Positions 16,899 to 24,177 of a stretch of DNA of 64,000 nt are shown in pieces. Position 1 is the stretch's first letter, and every line of letters begins with the position of its first letter. The notes beneath the pieces are model-generated. The model worked only from the letters and a program-made list of their open reading frames with translations, had not been told where the DNA came from and did not search any database. This stretch comes from Proteus penneri (GTDB taxonomy: Bacteria; Pseudomonadota; Gammaproteobacteria; Enterobacterales; Enterobacteriaceae). Location of the stretch: the NCBI RefSeq assembly GCF_003144535.1, contig NZ_PHFJ01000005.1, positions 1-64,000 of the forward strand. Reading direction: 5' to 3'. The translations under genes were made by a program, and so were the position numbers.

Positions 16899-17918
16899 TT
16901 ATTTAAAACCAGTTGCAGCCATTGCTAACGTTGTATCAAGCATCCGATTAGCAAAGCCCCATTCATTATCACACCAGACTAACGTCTTGATCAGGTGTTG
17001 CCCACTGACTCTTGTTTGAGTGCCGTCAACGATAGCACTATGAGGGTCGTGGTTAAAATCAGTTGAGACTAATGGCAATTCTGTGTAATCCACTATACCA
17101 CGAAATGCGCCAGTTGCTGATTTTTGAATTAACCGATTGACATCTAACACATTTACAGCAGTTTTTACAGTGATACTTAAATCAATTGCCGTCACATTAA
17201 TTGTAGGAACTCGTACAGAAATTGCCTCAAAATGATCCTTAAATTTTGGGAAAATCCGAGTAATTCCTGCGGCTAATTTCGTATCAACAGGAATGATAGA
17301 TTGTCCTGCGGCACGAGTACGGCGTAAATCCTTATGATATGCATCAATCACGGGTTGATCGTTCATGGCTGCATGGATTGTTGTTACTGTTCCTGACTCT
17401 ATATTAAACGCATCATCCATCATTTTAATGATGGGAATAATACAGTTTGTTGTACAAGATGCATTTGAAACAATGCGGTGTTCTTTTTTAAGTTCATGTT
17501 GATTAACACCAAAAACCACTGTTGCATCTAAATCTGTTGTCCCCGGATGAGAAAAGAGCACTTTTTTTGCACCTTGTGCAATATGAGCTTCACCATCAGC
17601 ACGAGAGCCATAAGCACCACTACAATCAAGCACAACATCAATACCAAGCTCACCCCAAGGTAAATCAGTAATATCAGCATGATGAAAAAGACGAATGCTA
17701 TCATCACCTACTTGCAATAAATCGTTATTAATTCGTACATCCCAAGCAAAACGTCCGTGACTGGAGTCATACTTGAGAAGATGCCCAATGCCTTGTGCAT
17801 CAGCCAATTCATTTATTGCAACAACCGTTATTTCAGCCCGTTTACCTGATTCATAAAGCGCTCTTAACACATTACGCCCTATACGACCAAAACCGTTAAT
17901 AGCGACTCTGATTGTCAT
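16899..17918 (-). CDS. epd: D-erythrose-4-phosphate dehydrogenase
   Basis: [41 protein letters not shown]… is collinear with E. coli Epd. Start at 17918 with AAGGAAG upstream. The ORF-track extension of 36 aa is not supported. Confidence 0.9.
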
Positions 17919-18175
17919 GTGACTTCCTTGATAACTTGTGATTTGCAACCGCTTAGAATAATAGAGCAAGATACTAATCAACAACGATAAATCAAGTAAA
18001 TCTAGAAATTGTGCAGTCACCGACATTTTAGCATTAACTGAAACGGTTCAGCTTATTGATAATCAGATTACGAGAAATGAGAGAAGATCGCAATAGTAAA
18101 CAAAGATGGAAGGATAAAAAAAGAGCACATCTGAGAAATTCTTCCCAAAAATGTGCTCTTGTTAACACTTATTGA

Positions 18176-20170
18176 TTATTTAAGTAAAGATTTTGCCTGT
18201 GTGACCACATTTTCAACAGTAAAACCAAACTCTTCAAATAATTCGTTTGCAGGTGCAGATTCGCCGAAGCTATGCATACCAACAATCGCGCCTTCTAAAC
18301 CAACATATTTGAACCAATAGTCAGCAATACCAGCTTCGATAGCAACACGTGCTTTCACTGATGTTGGTAATACTGCTTCACGGTAATCTGCATCTTGCTT
18401 ATCAAATGCATCTGTTGCTGGCATAGAAACAACACGTACTTTACGGCCTTCAGCAGTCAGTTGATCATAAGCGCTAACCGCTAATTCAACTTCAGAACCT
18501 GTGGCAATAAAGATTAATTCAGGCGTACCAGCACAATCTTTCAGGATGTAACCACCCTTCTCGATATTTGCCAGTTGCTCTGGAGTACGTGGTTGTTGTG
18601 CAAGATTTTGACGAGAGAAGATCAGCGCTGTAGGGCCATCTTTACGATCAATAGCATATTTCCATGCAACAGCTGATTCAACTTGGTCACATGGACGCCA
18701 TGTGCTCACGTTTGGAGTGACACGCAGGCTTGCCATTTGCTCAACAGGTTGGTGAGTTGGGCCATCTTCACCCAGACCGATAGAGTCATGAGTATAAACA
18801 AAGATACTGCGGATCTTCATCAGTGCAGCCATACGCACTGCATTACGCGCATATTCCATAAACATCAGGAAGGTTGCGCCGTAAGGAACAAAACCGCCAT
18901 GTAATGCAATACCGTTCATGATTGCAGACATACCAAATTCACGCACACCGTAATGGATGTAGTTACCAGCCTTGTCTTCGTTCAGTGCTTTAGAACCAGA
19001 CCACATGGTCAGGTTACTTGGTGCTAAGTCCGCAGAACCGCCCATGAATTCTGGTAATACTTTACCGAATGCTTCTAATGCATTTTGAGACGCTTTGCGG
19101 CTTGCGATGCTTGAAGGATTTTGTTGCAGATTTTCAATAAATGCTTTGGCATCTTTTTCCCAGTTTGCGGGTAATTCACCAGAAACACGACGTTTGAATT
19201 CAGCCGCTAATTCAGGGAACTGTGCTGCGTATGCAGCAAATTTAGCATCCCATGCAGCTTCTTTTGCTTTACCCGCTTCTTTCGCATCCCACTCTTTATA
19301 GATTTCTTGTGGAATTTCGAATGCGCCATATTCCCAACCTAATGCTTTACGTGTTTCAGCAATTTCTGCATCACCTAATGGGGAACCGTGAGAATCAGCA
19401 GTACCTGCTTTATGAGGGGAACCAAAACCGATAGTGGTTTTACAAATCAACAGTGAAGGCTTGTCAGTAATTTGTTTTGCTTCTTCAACCGCGGCTTTGA
19501 TGCTTGCTGCATCGTGTCCATCAATGCCACTGATGACATGCCAGCCATAAGCGTCAAAACGTTCTGCTGTGTTATCAGTAAACCAACCGTGCACTTGACC
19601 ATCAATAGAGATGCCATTGTCATCATAGAATGCAATCAGTTTACCTAACTGTAATGTTCCAGCTAAAGAACACGCTTCATGAGAGATACCTTCCATCATA
19701 CAACCATCACCCATAAAGGCGTAGGTGTAGTGGTCAACAATGTCATGACCAGGACGGTTAAATTGAGCCGCTAATGTACGTTCTGCAATAGCAAAGCCCA
19801 CTGCGTTTGCAATACCTTGACCTAAAGGACCCGTTGTTGTTTCAACACCAGGGGTATAACCATATTCTGGGTGACCCGGCGTTTTAGAATGCAATTGACG
19901 GAAGTTTTTTAGATCATCTAAAGAAACTTGATAACCAGACAGGTGCAGTAAGCTATAAATCAGCATTGAAGCGTGGCCGTTAGATAATACGAAACGGTCA
20001 CGATCAGCCCAGTTAGGGTTAGTCGGGTTATGATTTAAAAAATCACGCCATAATACTTCTGCAATATCAGCCATACCCATAGGGGCGCCAGGGTGTCCTG
20101 ATTTCGCTTTTTGCACAGCATCCATACTTAAAAAACGGATCGCATTAGCAAGGGTTTTACGAGTGGTCAT
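18176..20170 (-). CDS. tktA: Transketolase
   Basis: 664 aa. Full-length match to TktA, including the thiamine-pyrophosphate motifs (GHPG…[10 protein letters not shown]…). Confidence 0.95.
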
Positions 20171-20956
20171 TTTCTACTCCAAGTCGGATAAAAAGCATCT
20201 AGATAGCTGATTCTCTCAATGCAGGCAAAAAACCGCAATATAAAAAATCCACCAAGGTGGCTATCGTAATTAGCTTAAAGCAATAATTCTTTGATTTGCA
20301 CGGCATTTTTTACGATCAAAGCGGAAAATAACATTACACCACCGCATTGTTGCGCAACGAAAAGCAAAAAAGACAATGATTTGCGCAATTGAGAAGCGTG
20401 CTATTAAACCTTAGCTTGATATGACTAATCAAGATAAAATTTCATTGCTGAATTATCCATCAAATCAAATAAATACTGTATTGTTTTAATTATAACCTAA
20501 TAACTGACTAAACTTGTTACAAGGACGTAGAATTATAAGAGATTAAAAAAGATAAAAAGCAGATAACCCACTGATTCAGTAATAAAAATCTTATTTACAT
20601 CATATATAACTAAAAGGGAAAGTCAGCGTAACGTAAATGTTACTTATCACCTTAGCAAAATGAGTGAGAAAATAAGTAATTAGGTTATTCCAAGAATGGT
20701 TTTTATAAATTTTATTACAATAAAGAATATATTTTTCGTATTTTGACTTTCAATAAGCCTAAAGTTTCTTTTTTCTGTGTTAATTGAATATTTTTTTCCA
20801 TTATTATTTTTGCAGAAAATAGTTTCAGAAAACAGCTTATTTAATAATACTCGAAAGTTTACAAAGCAAAAAACCCAGCATAAATGCCGGGGTTTAGTAA
20901 TGAAAGGCATCCCTCCGAATTGGATTATCATTTCATGTGGTTATAACTAACCTTGT

Positions 20957-22180
20957 TCAGATATTTTTAAAGATAGGTATTTTTCTCACTTCTTTAAGGT
21001 AGGCAGTACCTTCAGTATTGCCAGTACCTGGCGAGGCGCCCAGCATTTTTACAGCAATACCGTAATGCGACTGCCTCCATATTTTCATGCCTAATCCAAA
21101 CGACTCCATCGCTTGATGAAAATCATCTTTATACAAATTATCCTGAGGAATAAGATTAAAAACATCATCAATCGTCTCAGGGTTGCATAAAATCTCCTCG
21201 CTTACCTCCGGTACCGCTCGATAGGCTATTGAATTGAATCTTTCAGCATCAGGTCTACTACACAATGATTCAACTTTTTTATAACTGCGTGACTGGATTG
21301 CACTAGAACCTTCGGTATAGTCTCTGAACCTATGAAAGCCATCAACCCGCAACGTCGATAGCAATGGAAAAAGTGCTGCCATTTCATTCAATCGATTAGC
21401 ACTGAGAAACAAGAGTTCAGTTGCTTGTTTCAGATCCGATTTAGCAAAGGCAATAACTTCCGTTAAACAAGAGGCCAGCCAATCAAACAATGTTTCAAAA
21501 GCCTGTAATATACGTAAAAAAATGTACTCATCATGATTAATATAAACGGGTATCATTGAGTATTCTAAGCGTAATTTTTCATTATCAGATAAGCGTAAAA
21601 ACACAGCGGAACAAATTGTGTCGCAGATCGCTATCATATCCCGCTCATTATTTTCCCACTGTATATTCATTCGTTGATATACTTTTCCCATACACTTTAT
21701 CAGTCGTCGGCAACGCATATTAACAAGTCGCTGATCTGGTGCCATTTCATAGAGCCAACTGCCATTATTACGCAATGCCTCTAGCTCAAAACGGATTAAA
21801 TCCATAGTAATAATAGTCAGTTGCCAATCGATATAATCAGCACTATTTTCTGTGTAATTCTGCCAATGTAATAAATCCAGTGCTAGATAAGATCGGTAAC
21901 TATAAGTGTCATCAAATTTATCCAAGACGACGTTAAGAAAACTTAACATCCAATCACCAGCGGAATTGCGGGCTAATTCATCTCGATATACTGCCAGTTG
22001 TTGTAATTTTTGGTGGGTAACAAAATGTTTTCCAACTTTATGAAATTCAGAAAGAATTTCTCTGGCATCACATCGATGACTATTATTCAATAGACTGTCT
22101 TCGGTGGTCACTCTATAACTCTTTTCACGTTTTGAATCAGCCCCATCAAGATGCTCTTGCTCTGATATTCTATCAACCAT
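20957..22180 (-). CDS. Tryptophan 2,3-dioxygenase-like (TDO-superfamily fold) protein of unknown function, in an AT-rich islet
   Basis: 407 aa. The C-terminus WRQSHYGIAVKMLGASPGTGNTEGTAYLKEV matches the TDO motif WRxxHxxMVxRMLGxKxGTGGSSGxxYL (as recalled from human TDO2: [28 protein letters not shown]). The N-terminal region contains YRSYLALDLLHWQ, like the TDO Y-x-x-YL-x-LD-x-LL-x-Q motif. GGGAG lies 7 nt before ATG 22180. The gene is flanked by ~0.8 kb and ~1 kb of ORF-free, very AT-rich DNA. Confidence 0.5.
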   Translation of the reverse strand: MVDRISEQEHLDGADSKREKSYRVTTEDSLLNNSHRCDAREILSEFHKVGKHFVTHQKLQQLAVYRDELARNSAGDWMLSFLNVVLDKFDDTYSYRSYLALDLLHWQNYTENSADYIDWQLTIITMDLIRFELEALRNNGSWLYEMAPDQRLVNMRCRRLIKCMGKVYQRMNIQWENNERDMIAICDTICSAVFLRLSDNEKLRLEYSMIPVYINHDEYIFLRILQAFETLFDWLASCLTEVIAFAKSDLKQATELLFLSANRLNEMAALFPLLSTLRVDGFHRFRDYTEGSSAIQSRSYKKVESLCSRPDAERFNSIAYRAVPEVSEEILCNPETIDDVFNLIPQDNLYKDDFHQAMESFGLGMKIWRQSHYGIAVKMLGASPGTGNTEGTAYLKEVRKIPIFKNI

Positions 22181-23183
22181 AGTTAGCTCCCGGCTCTTTG
22201 TTTCGATAAATCAGTAACTGTCCACAAAAAAATCTACGTCGGCTTGCTGTATAAAATAATGGATGGCGATCCTTAACACCTTATTACGCAAATTCCTCTT
22301 TGTTGCATAAATGTCAGGATTTCAAGTTGCTGGGCGAGTAGTTTTATATATTCCATCCCGCGCTTCACTAATACTGTTGCCTTCGCTACATGCCCAGCAC
22401 TCAATTCACTTGCTGCTTCAGCTAACTCTTCATTTTGTTGAAGATTCAACCATCGCTATGTGGATTGATGTATAACCTGAAAGAAAAATTCATTAGAAAT
22501 ATGAATGTATTTATACAATATAACAGTCATTAAAACCAACAATAATTTAACGTTGAACCAACAACCCTAACTGTAAAAAGACATATTTACTGGAATTACA
22601 TAAACAAAATCAATCAAGTTAAAAGAAAAATAATTTTATTATATAGGTTGAAAATCCTTTAAATTAATCCGCAAAAGAGTAATTAAAGCTAATTAAAAGT
22701 GATAATTTGCATTATTATAGTCTTTTAGTTCACTTTGTTATTATGATTTATTTTATTATTCTAATTGCTTTAATTATTTTAACGGTAATTTTTCGAAGGG
22801 TAACAATTAAAGATACCCCGTCATCAATCACAAGTCCGAGAAGCATATACATAAAATATATTTATATTTTTAATTGAGGCAATGTTAAAATCTGTTTTAT
22901 TGGTTTCCAGTAATTATTTATATATTCAATTAAACGGCTATTCGGGTCTAATAAACAGGGTGTTACTGGCTAGCTGGGGCTAGTTTGGATATCAACGGGG
23001 ATCAGTACTGGAGTTGCCCGCTTAATGGTAGGAGAAAGCCTTGTGTTCTTATGTTTAGCCCAAAGAGTTCAATGTATATGAACACACATTACAGCGTGAT
23101 TTACGTGAACATTTGGCTTATTTACGGGTAGAAGGTCGGAAAAGTGGCATACTGCAGGTATGGCATAATGATAAAACCTCAAT

Positions 23184-23217
23184 AGCAAAAACGCCATGCT
23201 AATAAATAGCATGGCGT
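23184..23217 (-). terminator. Rho-independent terminator downstream of tRNA-Asp
   Basis: acgccatgct-aataaat-agcatggcgt is a perfect 10-bp stem. A T-run follows on the minus strand (plus-strand caaaaa at 23185-23190). Confidence 0.6.
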
Positions 23218-23224
23218 CATAATT

Positions 23225-23301
23225 TGGCGGAACGGACGGGACTCGAACCCGCGCCCCCCTGCGTGACAGGCAGGTATTCTAACCAACTGAACTACCGCTC
23301 C
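23225..23301 (-). tRNA. aspV: tRNA-Asp (anticodon GUC)
   Basis: The reverse complement GGAGCGGTAGTTCAGTTGGTTAGAATACCTGCCTGTCACGCAGGGGGCGCGGGTTCGAGTCCCGTCCGTTCCGCCA matches E. coli tRNA-Asp at all but 2-3 positions, with a 77-nt cloverleaf. It lies downstream of dnaQ, as aspV does in E. coli. Confidence 0.93.
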
Positions 23302-23424
23302 GCGTATCCTTTTGGACGAGGTGAATATTACGAATCTCTTGCCTTGTCGTCAACTGTTTTTCTAACAAAAAGATGCATTTGGATAGTTTTTAATCTCAGT
23401 TAACCATTTCTGCATTTTTTATCT

Positions 23425-24177
23425 TCAAACAGCCTCATCATTTGATGCTGGACGCCACAAACAATGCCCACCTTTTTTCTCAACTAAATCTAATCGAGAC
23501 TCATGCTCAGCAAGTTCTTCTGCGGTTGCTCTTATTACTCTTAATCCTGAAACAGGGCGCTCGATACGCTGGATATCATTTTGCTCTTGCTCGTTATTTG
23601 ATTCACCTTCCATTGAAAATGCTAATGCTGTTTGTCCACCGGTCATTGCCAAATAGACATCAGAAAGTATTTCAGCATCCAATAACGCGCCGTGAAGAGT
23701 ACGTTTAGAGTTATCTATTAAGTATCTATCACATAAGGCATCAAGGTTATTTCGCTTACCGGGAAATAATGCTCTTGCCATTGCAAGGCTATCGGTAATT
23801 TGGCAGAACGTTTCAGTAGGCGGAATATCACGGTTAAGTTTTCTAAACTCATAATCCATAAAGCCAATATCGAACGATGCGTTATGAATGATCAGCTCTG
23901 CGCCACGAATATACTCTAAAAACTCGTCAGCGATATCAGCAAAAGAAGGACAATCTTCTAAAAACTCATCACTAATACCATGAACTTCAAACGCTTCAGG
24001 ATCAACTAATCTTTCGGGCTTAATATAAACATGGAAATTTCGCCCTGTTAATCGACGATTGATAACCTCTACAGCACCAATTTCAATGATATTATGACCT
24101 TCATAATGAACGCCCAGCTTATTCATACCAGTAGTTTCGGTATCAAGTACAATTTGTCGTGTGATTGGAGTGCTCAT
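23425..24177 (-). CDS. dnaQ: DNA polymerase III epsilon subunit (3'-5' proofreading exonuclease)
   Basis: 250 aa. …RQIVLDTETTGMN…HNASFDIGFMDYEF… matches DnaQ. It is divergent from rnhA, as in E. coli. Confidence 0.92.
   Translation of the reverse strand: MSTPITRQIVLDTETTGMNKLGVHYEGHNIIEIGAVEVINRRLTGRNFHVYIKPERLVDPEAFEVHGISDEFLEDCPSFADIADEFLEYIRGAELIIHNASFDIGFMDYEFRKLNRDIPPTETFCQITDSLAMARALFPGKRNNLDALCDRYLIDNSKRTLHGALLDAEILSDVYLAMTGGQTALAFSMEGESNNEQEQNDIQRIERPVSGLRVIRATAEELAEHESRLDLVEKKGGHCLWRPASNDEAV

Follow-up and report, generated by a model that had tools for sequence, protein, structure and literature searches.

The route by which bacteria hydroxylate tryptophan reportedly went unexplained until the discovery of heme-dependent bTPH enzymes in 2023, and to our knowledge the roles of these enzymes beyond actinomycete antibiotic clusters have barely been explored. 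Their architecture consists of a C-terminal domain resembling tryptophan 2,3-dioxygenase (TDO) and an N-terminal extension in which a YxxY motif is conserved (PMC13091554). Luz15 of Actinomadura luzonensis (UKU09928.1) is described as a heme-dependent tryptophan hydroxylase acting at C5 (Shi et al. 2023, Nat Chem Biol 19:1415, as reported in PMC13091554 and PMC13141384), while BifE acts at C4 of tryptophan (PMC13285481). Luz15 is active alone in E. coli, and its Arg301 reportedly positions the indole so that C5 is hydroxylated (PMC13091554). Mono-oxygenation rather than dioxygenation also has a precedent within the histidyl-ligated heme fold (PMC11904535).

We analysed a stretch of 64 kb, referred to as the window, from a genome of the Proteus penneri/vulgaris group, whose members are gut and urinary-tract organisms. 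A part of about 3 kb, bounded by tktA on one side and by the 3' end of tRNA-Asp on the other, contains a single intact gene of 407 aa, as an earlier sequence-only reading had stated and as the coordinates and ARAGORN bear out (Table 1). The encoded protein, a long TDO-like putative heme oxygenase, is termed lTDO here.

Table 1 Features of the region between tktA and tRNA-Asp (positions within the window).
Feature	Position	Strand	Evidence
tktA	18176-20170	(-)	
AT-rich spacer, relic to tktA	20171..20873	.	GC ~0.30
Terminator-like hairpin CCCGGCA-TTTA-TGCTGGG + T run	20874..20891	(-)	consensus scan; 66 nt past lTDO stop
FAD-dependent monooxygenase remnant, first ~10 codons	20915..20944	(-)	blastn to intact clusters L091 and L092, running to 20918
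lTDO, long TDO-like (bTPH-like) putative heme oxygenase, 407 aa	20957..22180	(-)	ORF, PF03301, PDB phmmer, AF2/Foldseek
PLP (class-V, kynureninase-like) gene fragment, 3'-terminal, residues ~337-375	22176..22288	(-)	tblastn E 6e-11, match divided between two frames; DNA alignment to intact cluster L091
sTDO (short canonical TDO) internal fragment, residues ~48/57-118/133 of 238-254	22279..22515	(-)	tblastn 62-64% identity, E 1e-22
AT-rich core between sTDO and MFS fragments	22516..22975	.	GC 0.25
MFS transporter remnant, 43 bp, 3' part, residues 336-349	22976..23018	(+)	colinear blastn matches (E 8e-6 to 4e-4) in three independent intact clusters; tblastn 12/14 residues
12-bp terminator hairpin after tRNA-Asp	23190-23218		terminator scan
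tRNA-Asp (GTC)	23225..23301	(-)	ARAGORN; Rfam 67.7 bits; 3' end faces relic

On comparative sequence evidence we conclude that the region is what is left of a horizontally mobile, tryptophan/kynurenine-type biosynthetic operon of about 11 genes with lTDO as its last intact gene, because colinear fragments of the MFS, sTDO, PLP and FAD genes surround lTDO and relatives carry the intact 11-gene order. In intact clusters a divergently transcribed MFS exporter gene is followed by the genes for sTDO, the PLP enzyme, lTDO, an FAD monooxygenase, a class-IV aminotransferase (AT4), a formamidase-like cyclase, a class-I/II aminotransferase (AT1/2), a VOC protein and two ATP-grasp ligases. Among the loci compared, the three from outside Proteus with the highest identity (75, 71 and 69%) all show this arrangement, as does Yersinia alsatica (strain IP38850, contig NZ_CABHWW010000014.1, positions 244-257 kb); a homologue from Photobacterium leiognathi has 78% identity. 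One of the intact clusters stems from a Cosenzaea-like MAG, whose FliI shares 90% identity or more with the Proteus (Cosenzaea) myxofaciens protein. When all cluster proteins were compared with NCBIfam, the FAD enzyme alone passed a model, which was of the subfamily type (PRK08132), and none of the proteins matched an equivalog.

The surviving fragments show different kinds of damage. The PLP fragment carries a frameshift of 1 nt, although the Shine-Dalgarno sequence GGGAG for lTDO is still present, and three other Proteus genomes have an additional deletion of 86 bp in this fragment. The sTDO fragment, to which an ORF of 58 aa (22273-22449) belongs, is interrupted by an in-frame stop codon within the HQSTELW helix (translation 'HQST*RW') and has neither a start codon nor the proximal His. 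Similarity of the FAD remnant to the intact genes ends just ahead of the GxGxxG motif. The putative MFS remnant is weak alone and ambiguous at the protein level, where two parts of the transporter match the same DNA in different frames, but we accept it because the DNA matches to three references are colinear. The AT-rich core stands in place of about 1.2 kb of cluster DNA, i.e. the 5' end of the sTDO gene, the divergent promoter region and most of the MFS gene, and no homology of the core to cluster DNA was found. Nor did tblastn, blastn with a word size of 7 or local alignment to the cluster ends reveal convincing remnants of the seven missing downstream genes in 20171-20917. On this reading the operon once adjoined tRNA-Asp in a forerunner of the Proteus vulgaris/penneri group, and deletions then took almost all of it, leaving one gene.

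These results change the picture that had been drawn from the sequence alone in several respects. Fragments of four decayed operon genes lie in the flanks that had been taken as ORF-free. The proposed absence of kynurenine-pathway partners next to the gene holds for intact genes, as there is no intact kynB/kynU (formamidase, kynureninase) within the window, but not for the immediate upstream DNA with its sTDO and kynureninase-like fragments. The proposed AT-richness is real for the 3,054-bp stretch as a whole, the GC content of which is 0.343 compared with 0.384 for the window and falls within the lowest 5% of 3-kb windows; however, it is due wholly to the two spacers (0.30 and 0.33), whereas the lTDO gene (GC 0.381, GC3 0.319) is composed like its neighbours and thus host-like. 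In addition, 400-bp windows with a GC content below 0.28 occur at many further intergenic sites within the window. In line with the earlier interpretation, the site is variable: at the corresponding position after dnaQ, P. mirabilis carries different cargo, either siderophore genes or a gene for an IS200-type transposase. A horizontally acquired lone gene describes the present state, in which lTDO is solitary, but not its origin as the last of about 11 operon genes, its host-like composition or the lack of traces of integration: no integrase ORF was detected, and no second copy of the 3' 24-mer of tRNA-Asp was found at up to 3 mismatches. The relic resembles tRNA-associated genomic islands and decayed biosynthetic clusters in its position directly 3' of a tRNA gene, in the varying cargo and in the patchy distribution of the cluster among bacteria. 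It differs from them in that an integrase, a directly repeated tRNA 3' end and a compositional anomaly of the surviving gene are all lacking.

Regulatory signals were scarce. The promoter and terminator scans yielded no more sites than shuffled sequence would lead one to expect. Just two terminator-like hairpins are noteworthy, and the one downstream of lTDO is no more than suggestive. The promoter scan identified no lTDO promoter above chance; several promoter-like hexamer pairs are located on the minus strand of the AT-rich core, their count likewise not exceeding chance. The spacer next to tktA presumably contains the tktA promoter. A search of 20000-23500 against Rfam at E ≤ 1 returned the tRNA alone.

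The membership of lTDO in the TDO superfamily, already proposed from its motifs, is supported by several approaches. The protein matches PF03301 with 40.9 bits (cutoff 34.9; E 2e-10) over residues 215-335 and the C-terminus, and phmmer finds TDOs in the PDB at E 1e-7. The AF2 model (pLDDT 85.5, pTM 0.85) displays the all-helical TDO fold, and a Foldseek comparison of this model with the PDB gave bacterial TDO chains as all of the top 37 matches (E 5e-5, TM to target 0.63-0.67). MarE and IDO, which have a histidyl-ligated heme helical-bundle fold as well, are among the weaker Foldseek matches (E 8e-3 or worse), and MarE differs from lTDO in its size of about 280 aa, the lack of an N-terminal extension and the presence of the distal His. 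A preprint on cytochrome P422/DUF6875 deals with a different fold.

Both TDO motifs named in the earlier reading are present, i.e. Y95-R-S-Y98-L-A-L-D and W368-R-x-x-H372...G385-T-G-N-T-E-G391, next to HDEY (216-219) and Arg286/Thr289. The GNTEG ending had been regarded as a departure, but it is one residue away from GGTEG of the Cupriavidus TDO (2nox) and from the family consensus GYTEG. W368-R-Q-S-H372 aligns with WRFRH240 of xcTDO and is invariant across 32 family members, from which His372 is predicted to be the proximal heme ligand. At the distal His site of TDO (xcTDO His55, hTDO His76) lTDO has Leu225, and Leu is invariant in the clade. The excess length of about 120 aa over bacterial TDOs, correctly noted before (chains of 276-306 aa), goes along with four extra helices between the YxxY segment and helix B in the AF2 model. 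We assign lTDO to a clade of 'long TDO-like' proteins of about 400-450 aa, in which an N-terminal helical extension of about 200 aa with YxxY, conserved family-wide, precedes the C-terminal TDO fold. In the family alignment 51 columns are invariant in the 32 members, including columns of the N-terminal extension, and Proteus lTDO retains 79 of the 81 strongly conserved positions; the two changes, D94S and A292S, are Proteus-specific and both located within pocket motifs.

Among the described systems lTDO most resembles, judged by its sequence and predicted fold, bTPH and not a classical dioxygenase. The dioxygenase originally proposed has become unlikely, as lTDO scores below the cutoff of the KynA equivalog, has no distal His and is built like the heme-dependent tryptophan hydroxylases. 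With these it shares the size of about 400-450 aa, the YxxY extension, the heme motif W/x-R/K-x-x-H, an Arg...Thr pair to hold the amino-acid part of the substrate, an Ala and a Tyr to pack against its indole, and Ile or Leu at the TDO distal His site. The pocket residues reported for Luz15 (PMC13091554) correspond to residues of lTDO as follows: Tyr106 to Y98, Phe229 to F221, Ile233 to L225, Phe236 to F228, Phe291 to F282, Arg295 to R286, Thr298 to T289, Ser302 to S293, Ala303 to A294 and His375 to H372. This link was made through published residue numbers and a proxy instead of the sequence of a characterised bTPH, the proxy being the Streptomyces protein P0241, which has 16 of the 20 published Luz15 residues at one offset. 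P0241 matches lTDO at E 3e-33 with about 31% identity over the catalytic half, and its hhalign alignment with the family profile extends over the full length (386 columns, probability 99.9) and places Y95-R-S-Y98 against YHTY. The lTDO clade differs from bTPH in its genomic surroundings, since its members are usually found beside a short TDO and a kynureninase-like gene and not in NRPS clusters, and the Proteus copy is an orphan.

Taken together, the reading that we favour, and to which we attach a fair degree of probability, is that of a decayed operon of about 11 genes whose surviving bTPH-like heme enzyme stays functional, most likely hydroxylating L-Trp. Heme b would be ligated by His372, and an aromatic L-amino acid, most likely L-Trp, would be held at its carboxylate by Arg286 and at its ammonium group by Thr289/Thr386, while Tyr98, Phe221, Ala294 and Leu225, the replacement of the distal His, would pack the ring. 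With O2 and a reductant, or with H2O2, the ring would then be mono-oxygenated instead of undergoing 2,3-cleavage. Fold, motifs, decay of the operon and purifying selection belong to the observations, whereas heme binding, substrate, reaction and regiochemistry are inferred.

The alternative that survives best, though we regard it as rather unlikely, assumes a functional lTDO that is not a tryptophan hydroxylase and acts on a different aromatic amino acid or on an intermediate of the kynurenine pathway, or catalyses another heme reaction, possibly after recruitment for a new substrate in Proteus. The tight linkage of the clade to a short TDO (69 of 83 loci) and a kynureninase-like PLP enzyme (57 of 83), together with natural PLP::lTDO fusions in some members, suggests an action on a downstream intermediate, and the two Proteus-specific changes in the pocket motifs also speak for this alternative. 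Moreover, the Luz15 motif T-D-x-R-S-A was absent from all loci retrieved and every lTDO has T[ED]GASAIQS; the position of Arg301 is occupied by Ser292 in Proteus and by Ala in all other clade members, and that of Luz15 Asp299 by Glu. The Arg301 change bears on regioselectivity or substrate and not on the fold, and lTDO may therefore differ from Luz15 in one of these two properties. On the other hand, lTDO has the amino-acid-binding Arg/Thr, YxxY and a hydrophobic residue at the distal site, the set by which Luz15 is reported to bind tryptophan, lone members of the clade occur in Actinomycetes, and Luz15, as mentioned, requires no partner in E. coli. The orphan lTDO may nevertheless be left without both substrate and partner.

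A further, improbable explanation is that lTDO is a non-functional relic, which is intact by chance and will follow its neighbours. All of its surroundings have decayed, the operon promoter and the pathway partners have been lost, the dN/dS ratio of lTDO is 4-10 times above that of the neighbouring housekeeping genes, and split ORFs are found in Proteus sp. G2661 (199+201 aa) and P. penneri ATCC 35198 (238+73 aa). However, the ATCC 35198 draft also splits tktA, and its lTDO breaks are therefore probably assembly errors. In four Proteus lineages the gene comprises 407 codons without indels, and its dN/dS of 0.13-0.28, which is similar to the 0.12-0.17 of homologues in intact clusters, lies significantly under 1 in each of the six pairs compared (binomial test against neutrality, p 2e-8 to 5e-4). 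A comparison of the window with P. faecis shows about 17 indel events in about 1.85 kb of flanking DNA and none in the 1,224 bp of lTDO, and almost all conserved family positions are kept. Annotations of 384 aa in Proteus were considered as possible truncations and rejected, since the full frame of 407 codons is intact in a Proteus locus (L094). From the lack of indels and the low dN/dS, while the neighbouring fragments gained indels, a stop codon and a frameshift, we conclude that lTDO is probably functional; as regards the H-NS silencing suggested in the earlier reading, the purifying selection argues against a permanently silent gene.

It is highly improbable that lTDO is a classical TDO (KynA) yielding N-formylkynurenine, since, despite the PF03301 match, the helical fold shared with the enzymes of Xanthomonas campestris (2nw8/7p46) and Cupriavidus metallidurans (2nox), the proximal His, the equivalents of the substrate Arg117 and of Thr254, the GTGxxxG loop and the Y-x-x-Y-L-x-L-D segment, it reaches 51.8 bits where the KynA model TIGR03036 demands 390.7, has an invariant Leu for His55 and Phe for Tyr113, possesses the family-wide extension, has no kynB/kynU in the window, and has counterparts in intact clusters that encode a separate short canonical TDO with 'THQSTELW' two genes upstream, which makes a second identical activity unlikely.

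Returning to the favoured reading of a surviving bTPH-like hydroxylase, we tentatively consider, as a possibility on the unlikely side, that the Proteus vulgaris/penneri group keeps an exapted stand-alone heme enzyme, which was salvaged from an antibiotic-like operon and converts free tryptophan to hydroxytryptophan (5-HTP or another isomer). The islet, already decayed, would later have spread among Proteus species by recombination, a step suggested by its synonymous divergence, which is 2.5-3.5 times below that of the flanking core genes; such a pattern would hint at a selective advantage, possibly in the interaction with the host.

An inactive orphan would make the locus simply an annotated example of cluster decay. 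If it is active, it draws attention to a widespread 11-gene kynurenine-type/ATP-grasp cluster, which is patchily distributed across Proteobacteria and Actinomycetes, with carriers such as the Cosenzaea-like MAG, Yersinia alsatica, Photorhabdus noenieputensis, Rheinheimera and many Actinomycetes, and of which we found no description; our literature search yielded nothing specific on the cluster, on 'TDO-like' BGC enzymes or on Proteus and tryptophan hydroxylase. An active orphan would also be a clean case of one tailoring enzyme that was kept, and apparently exchanged between species, after the decay of its operon, and it would provide a stand-alone source of hydroxytryptophan, a serotonin-type precursor, in a common genus of human commensals and uropathogens.

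The long TDO-like gene (lTDO, 407 aa) lies between tktA and tRNA-Asp, both of which are encoded on the minus strand, and therefore the 3' end of the tRNA is oriented toward the lTDO region. The gene order dnaQ - tRNA-Asp - lTDO - tktA - epd - pgk - fba is constant in six Proteus assemblies, the 3.5 kb surrounding lTDO are 100% identical to CP065722.1, and the window's lTDO protein, TktA and DnaQ exactly match "MULTISPECIES: Proteus" proteins, whose 90% clusters take in P. penneri, P. faecis, P. columbae and P. terrae. No integrase gene, no repeat of the tRNA-Asp 3' end and no Rfam family besides the tRNA were found at the locus. In P. mirabilis, dnaQ is followed by FecCD/ABC/IucA-IucC siderophore genes or by an IS200-type transposase gene, so that the site is variable and the dnaQ-adjacent region is a variable hotspot across the genus. 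In the place that tRNA-Asp and the relic take in the window, one P. mirabilis contig (L089, 9331-16759) carries FecCD/ABC transporter, HpcH-like, IucA/IucC siderophore synthetase and TonB-receptor genes, and another strain (L090, 9173-9589) an IS200-type Y1 transposase gene.

The sequence-only reading had described this region as an AT-rich islet with empty, ORF-free flanks. The GC content of the 3,054-bp interval between tktA and tRNA-Asp is indeed 0.343 vs 0.384 window-wide; since this deficit is confined to the spacers (downstream 0.30, upstream 0.33, 460-bp core 0.25), the islet is a gene of ordinary composition (GC 0.381, GC3 0.319; tktA, dnaQ, epd and rnhA are alike with GC3 0.26-0.32) flanked by AT-rich non-coding DNA, which is also present at many further intergenic sites in the window. 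Nor are the flanks empty, as tblastn and blastn comparisons of intact homologous clusters with the window mapped a colinear series of gene fragments (see table), including a PLP gene fragment with a retained GGGAG ribosome-binding site. The remaining seven cluster genes left no detectable trace in 20171-20917. Judged by these similarities, the Proteus locus is the remains of an 11-gene operon; lTDO, correctly recognized before as solitary, is its only intact gene.

Features of the lTDO locus in the window and intact clusters on homologous contigs.
Feature	Sequence	Position	Strand	Remarks
epd/gapB-like ORF	window	16899-18026	-	375 aa from upstream ATG or 339 aa; both in public annotations
tktA	window	18176-20170	-	
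Terminator-like hairpin	window	20874-20891	-	66 nt past lTDO stop codon
FAD monooxygenase, first ~10 codons	window	~20915-20944	-	similarity ends just before GxGxxG motif
lTDO, intact, 407 aa	window	20957-22180	-	
lTDO residue 292 codon	window	about 21305-21307		
lTDO residue 94 codon	window	about 21899-21901		
PLP gene, last ~38 codons	window	22176-22288	-	E 6e-11; 1-nt frameshift in T run
Novel junction, 23 nt	window	next to 22279		
Short canonical TDO (sTDO), residues ~48-133	window	22279-22515	-	62-64% identity, E 1e-22; in-frame stop in HQST*RW
MFS 3' region, 43 bp	window	22976-23018	+	E 8e-6 to 4e-4, three references; weak alone, colinearity convincing
Terminator-like hairpin	window	23190-23218	-	directly after tRNA-Asp
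tRNA-Asp(GTC)	window	23225-23301	-	
Intact cluster	L008	5536-18719		
Intact cluster	L087	6382-18658		
Intact cluster	L091	1138-13606		
Intact cluster	L092	6375-18657		

The parent cluster was delineated by clustering ORFs around 80 loci and by a tblastn presence matrix over 83 loci. According to this matrix, lTDO homologues are adjoined by an sTDO gene in 69 of the 83 loci (~238 aa, PF03301 89 bits, canonical THQSTELW distal-His helix) and by a gene for a class-V PLP enzyme in 57, while FAD monooxygenase, class-IV aminotransferase and PF04199 cyclase/arylformamidase-like genes occur in about 24-30. The PLP enzyme resembles kynureninase; a match to PF22580 KYNU_C was obtained for Micromonospora and for fusion proteins. 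One operon is common to the three nearest non-Proteus relatives (75, 71 and 69% identity) and Yersinia alsatica, namely MFS (divergent) / sTDO - Aminotran_5 - long TDO - FAD_binding_3 (549 aa) - Aminotran_4 - Cyclase - Aminotran_1_2 - Glyoxalase/VOC - ATP-grasp - ATP-grasp. Carriers of the conserved 11-gene operon are a Cosenzaea-like MAG, Y. alsatica, Photorhabdus noenieputensis, Rheinheimera, Cysteiniphilum and many Actinomycetes, and among them it comprises two aminotransferases besides the PLP enzyme and two or three ATP-grasp ligases. FliI of the MAG contig clusters at 90% with that of Proteus (Cosenzaea) myxofaciens, and therefore the intact cluster is present in a sister lineage of Morganellaceae; there it adjoins fliE-J, a chromosomal place other than in Proteus. 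A CBASS-like SMODS and SAVED pair and AbiH (L092, 258-4350) and a YafO-type toxin (L087, 19093-19335) lie beside intact clusters, as would fit a mobile or variable genomic setting.

No protein of the cluster reached an NCBIfam equivalog and the literature search yielded no paper on the 11-gene cluster, which, like the orphaned, selectively maintained Proteus gene, appears undescribed in the literature searched. In at least three representative clusters, the PLP enzyme is naturally fused with the long TDO-like protein (787-806 aa); this Rosetta-stone sign implies that the two work jointly in the parent pathway, the coupling being functional and perhaps physical. The fusion proteins are P0105, P0108 and P0118 (787-806 aa) and P0114 (562 aa). 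A lone long TDO-like gene with no sTDO gene within 10 kb was observed in 13 of the 83 loci, mostly of Actinomycetes and Solirubrobacterales (L096, 9001-10651, where a SnoaL-like gene follows, and 12 more, e.g. L013, L022, L026 and L040), and the enzyme can therefore stand alone outside Proteus too.

Membership of the TDO superfamily, as proposed from the sequence, was borne out by PF03301 (40.9 bits, cutoff 34.9) and by the fold. A confident AlphaFold model (pLDDT 85.5, pTM 0.85), built from a 32-member family alignment, found bacterial TDOs as best Foldseek matches (E 5e-5, target-normalised TM 0.63-0.67), human TDO, MarE and IDO being far weaker. In the PDB sequence search, TDOs were the sole matches (E 1e-7, limited to residues ~210-407). 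HMMER and family alignments located both TDO motifs named before, i.e. the Y-x-x-Y-L-x-L-D segment (TDO Y24/Y27/L28, lTDO Y95/Y98/L99) and the proximal His (WRxxH, W368-R-x-x-H372), as well as the carboxylate-binding Arg (xcTDO R117, lTDO R286) and the Thr of the GTG loop (T254, lTDO T386); Tyr113 corresponds to Phe282. Unlike canonical TDOs, lTDO has, between the YxxY segment and helix B, a ~110-residue insert of four helices, and ~70 further residues precede that segment. Its GNTEG loop is one residue off GGTEG of the Cupriavidus TDO and off the clade consensus GYTEG. The N-terminal extension is kept family-wide, with invariant GKHF, LDKxDxxYxYxSY and PVxxxHDE motifs. When 5.8 billion proteins were searched by word index, 50 matches were obtained, each of 330-460 aa and with PF03301; HMMER, run exhaustively on 1.84 billion representatives at 50% identity, matched 113 of them at E<=1e-30 and 439 at E<=1e-3. 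Scanning one genome per species revealed >252 loci, mostly in Actinomycetes (Micromonospora, Nocardia, Streptomyces, Kutzneria) but also in Y. alsatica, P. noenieputensis, Rheinheimera, Cysteiniphilum, Chitinimonas and several Rhodobacterales. The nearest non-Proteus match, P0002 (WP_305840198.1, 78% identity), is annotated as Photobacterium leiognathi and could originate from inter-family transfer or a contaminated assembly.

Bacterial heme-dependent tryptophan hydroxylases have been on record since 2023 (PMC13091554, PMC13141384). Luz15 of Actinomadura luzonensis is described as hydroxylating Trp at C5, using heme with O2/ascorbate or H2O2, and as active alone in E. coli; Arg295 and Thr298 are reported to bind the amino-acid group, Ala303 and Tyr106 the indole, and Arg301 to direct C5 selectivity (PMC13091554). 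BifE is described as a C4 hydroxylase of Trp (PMC13285481). The published Luz15 residue numbers fit lTDO at piecewise-constant offsets: Y106, F229, I233, F236 and F291 correspond to Y98, F221, L225, F228 and F282, R295, T298, S302 and A303 to R286, T289, S293 and A294, and H375 and Y397/L398 to H372 and Y394/L395. In place of the Luz15 sequence we used P0241, a 453-aa Streptomyces protein among the representative matches, in which 16 of 20 published Luz15 residues (positions 229 to 398) are found at one offset. As P0241 aligns with the lTDO protein at E 3e-33 (31% identity, 236 aa) and with the whole family at E 1e-34 (profile comparison, 386 columns, probability 99.9, YHTY opposite YRSY), compared with E 1e-7 for TDOs, lTDO is, as judged via this stand-in, far nearer in sequence to Luz15-like proteins than to canonical TDOs. 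The chief difference is Arg301, which is Ala in the lTDO clade and Ser in Proteus, and regiochemistry or even substrate may thus differ from Luz15. A functional enzyme acting on another substrate is the rival explanation to which we give most weight.

That lTDO is a dying relic ranks second. Four Proteus lineages that share the wrecked operon were compared, namely those of the window, P. faecis L007, Proteus sp. CD3 L093 and JADSAT01 L094. The 407 codons of lTDO align without a gap in all four; that L094 is annotated with 384 aa reflects only the start-codon call. Pairwise dN/dS is 0.13-0.28 with a significant synonymous excess in 6/6 pairs (binomial p 2e-8 to 5e-4); the values are 0.12-0.17 for homologues in intact clusters and 0.02-0.05 for tktA, dnaQ and epd. 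The flanking fragments of the same genomes differ by an 86-bp deletion (PLP), ~20 bp (sTDO) and 12-15 bp (MFS), and the window and P. faecis by about 17 indel events across ~1.85 kb of flanks, a rate that predicts roughly 10 in 1,224 bases of neutral sequence. Among 81 family columns that are >=90% conserved, lTDO deviates at two (intact-cluster members at 0-7). These residues, D94S beside YxxY and A292S within the TEGASAIQS loop, are fixed across the Proteus copies seen and lie in predicted substrate-pocket motifs, A292 of the family corresponding to Luz15 Arg301. From these comparisons we conclude that lTDO has been under purifying selection ever since the cluster decayed. It can be lost in Proteus, as its ORF is split in two assemblies, though in one of these drafts tktA is split as well.

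For the deeper Proteus species pairs, lTDO has a dS 2.5-3.5 times below the dS of dnaQ/tktA (0.066-0.092 vs 0.16-0.28; window 18176-24177, L007, L093, L094), and so the islet, already decayed, seems to be younger than its flanks, which suggests recombinational spread among species or divergent recombination in the flanks. In the closest pair, dS of lTDO equals that of the flanks (~0.05).

A classical dioxygenase is the weakest rival, and the earlier label "dioxygenase" is probably wrong, the score against the KynA equivalog TIGR03036 being 51.8 bits, far below the cutoff of 390.7, and the distal His55 of TDO being replaced by Leu225, which is invariant in the clade. The lTDO product is instead predicted to be a homo-oligomeric heme b protein with His372 as ligand, which would bind an aromatic L-amino acid, most likely L-Trp, through Arg286 and Thr289/Thr386 in a putative hydrophobic ring pocket of Tyr98, Phe221, Leu225, Phe282 and Ala294 with no distal base, and mono-oxygenate the ring using either O2 and a reductant or H2O2. 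Within the parent operon, the oxygenase step would feed or follow the sTDO, formamidase and kynureninase-like steps, and the ATP-grasp ligases would complete a small peptide-like product sent out by the MFS exporter. In Proteus, the oxygenase step would be the sole remnant of this pathway.
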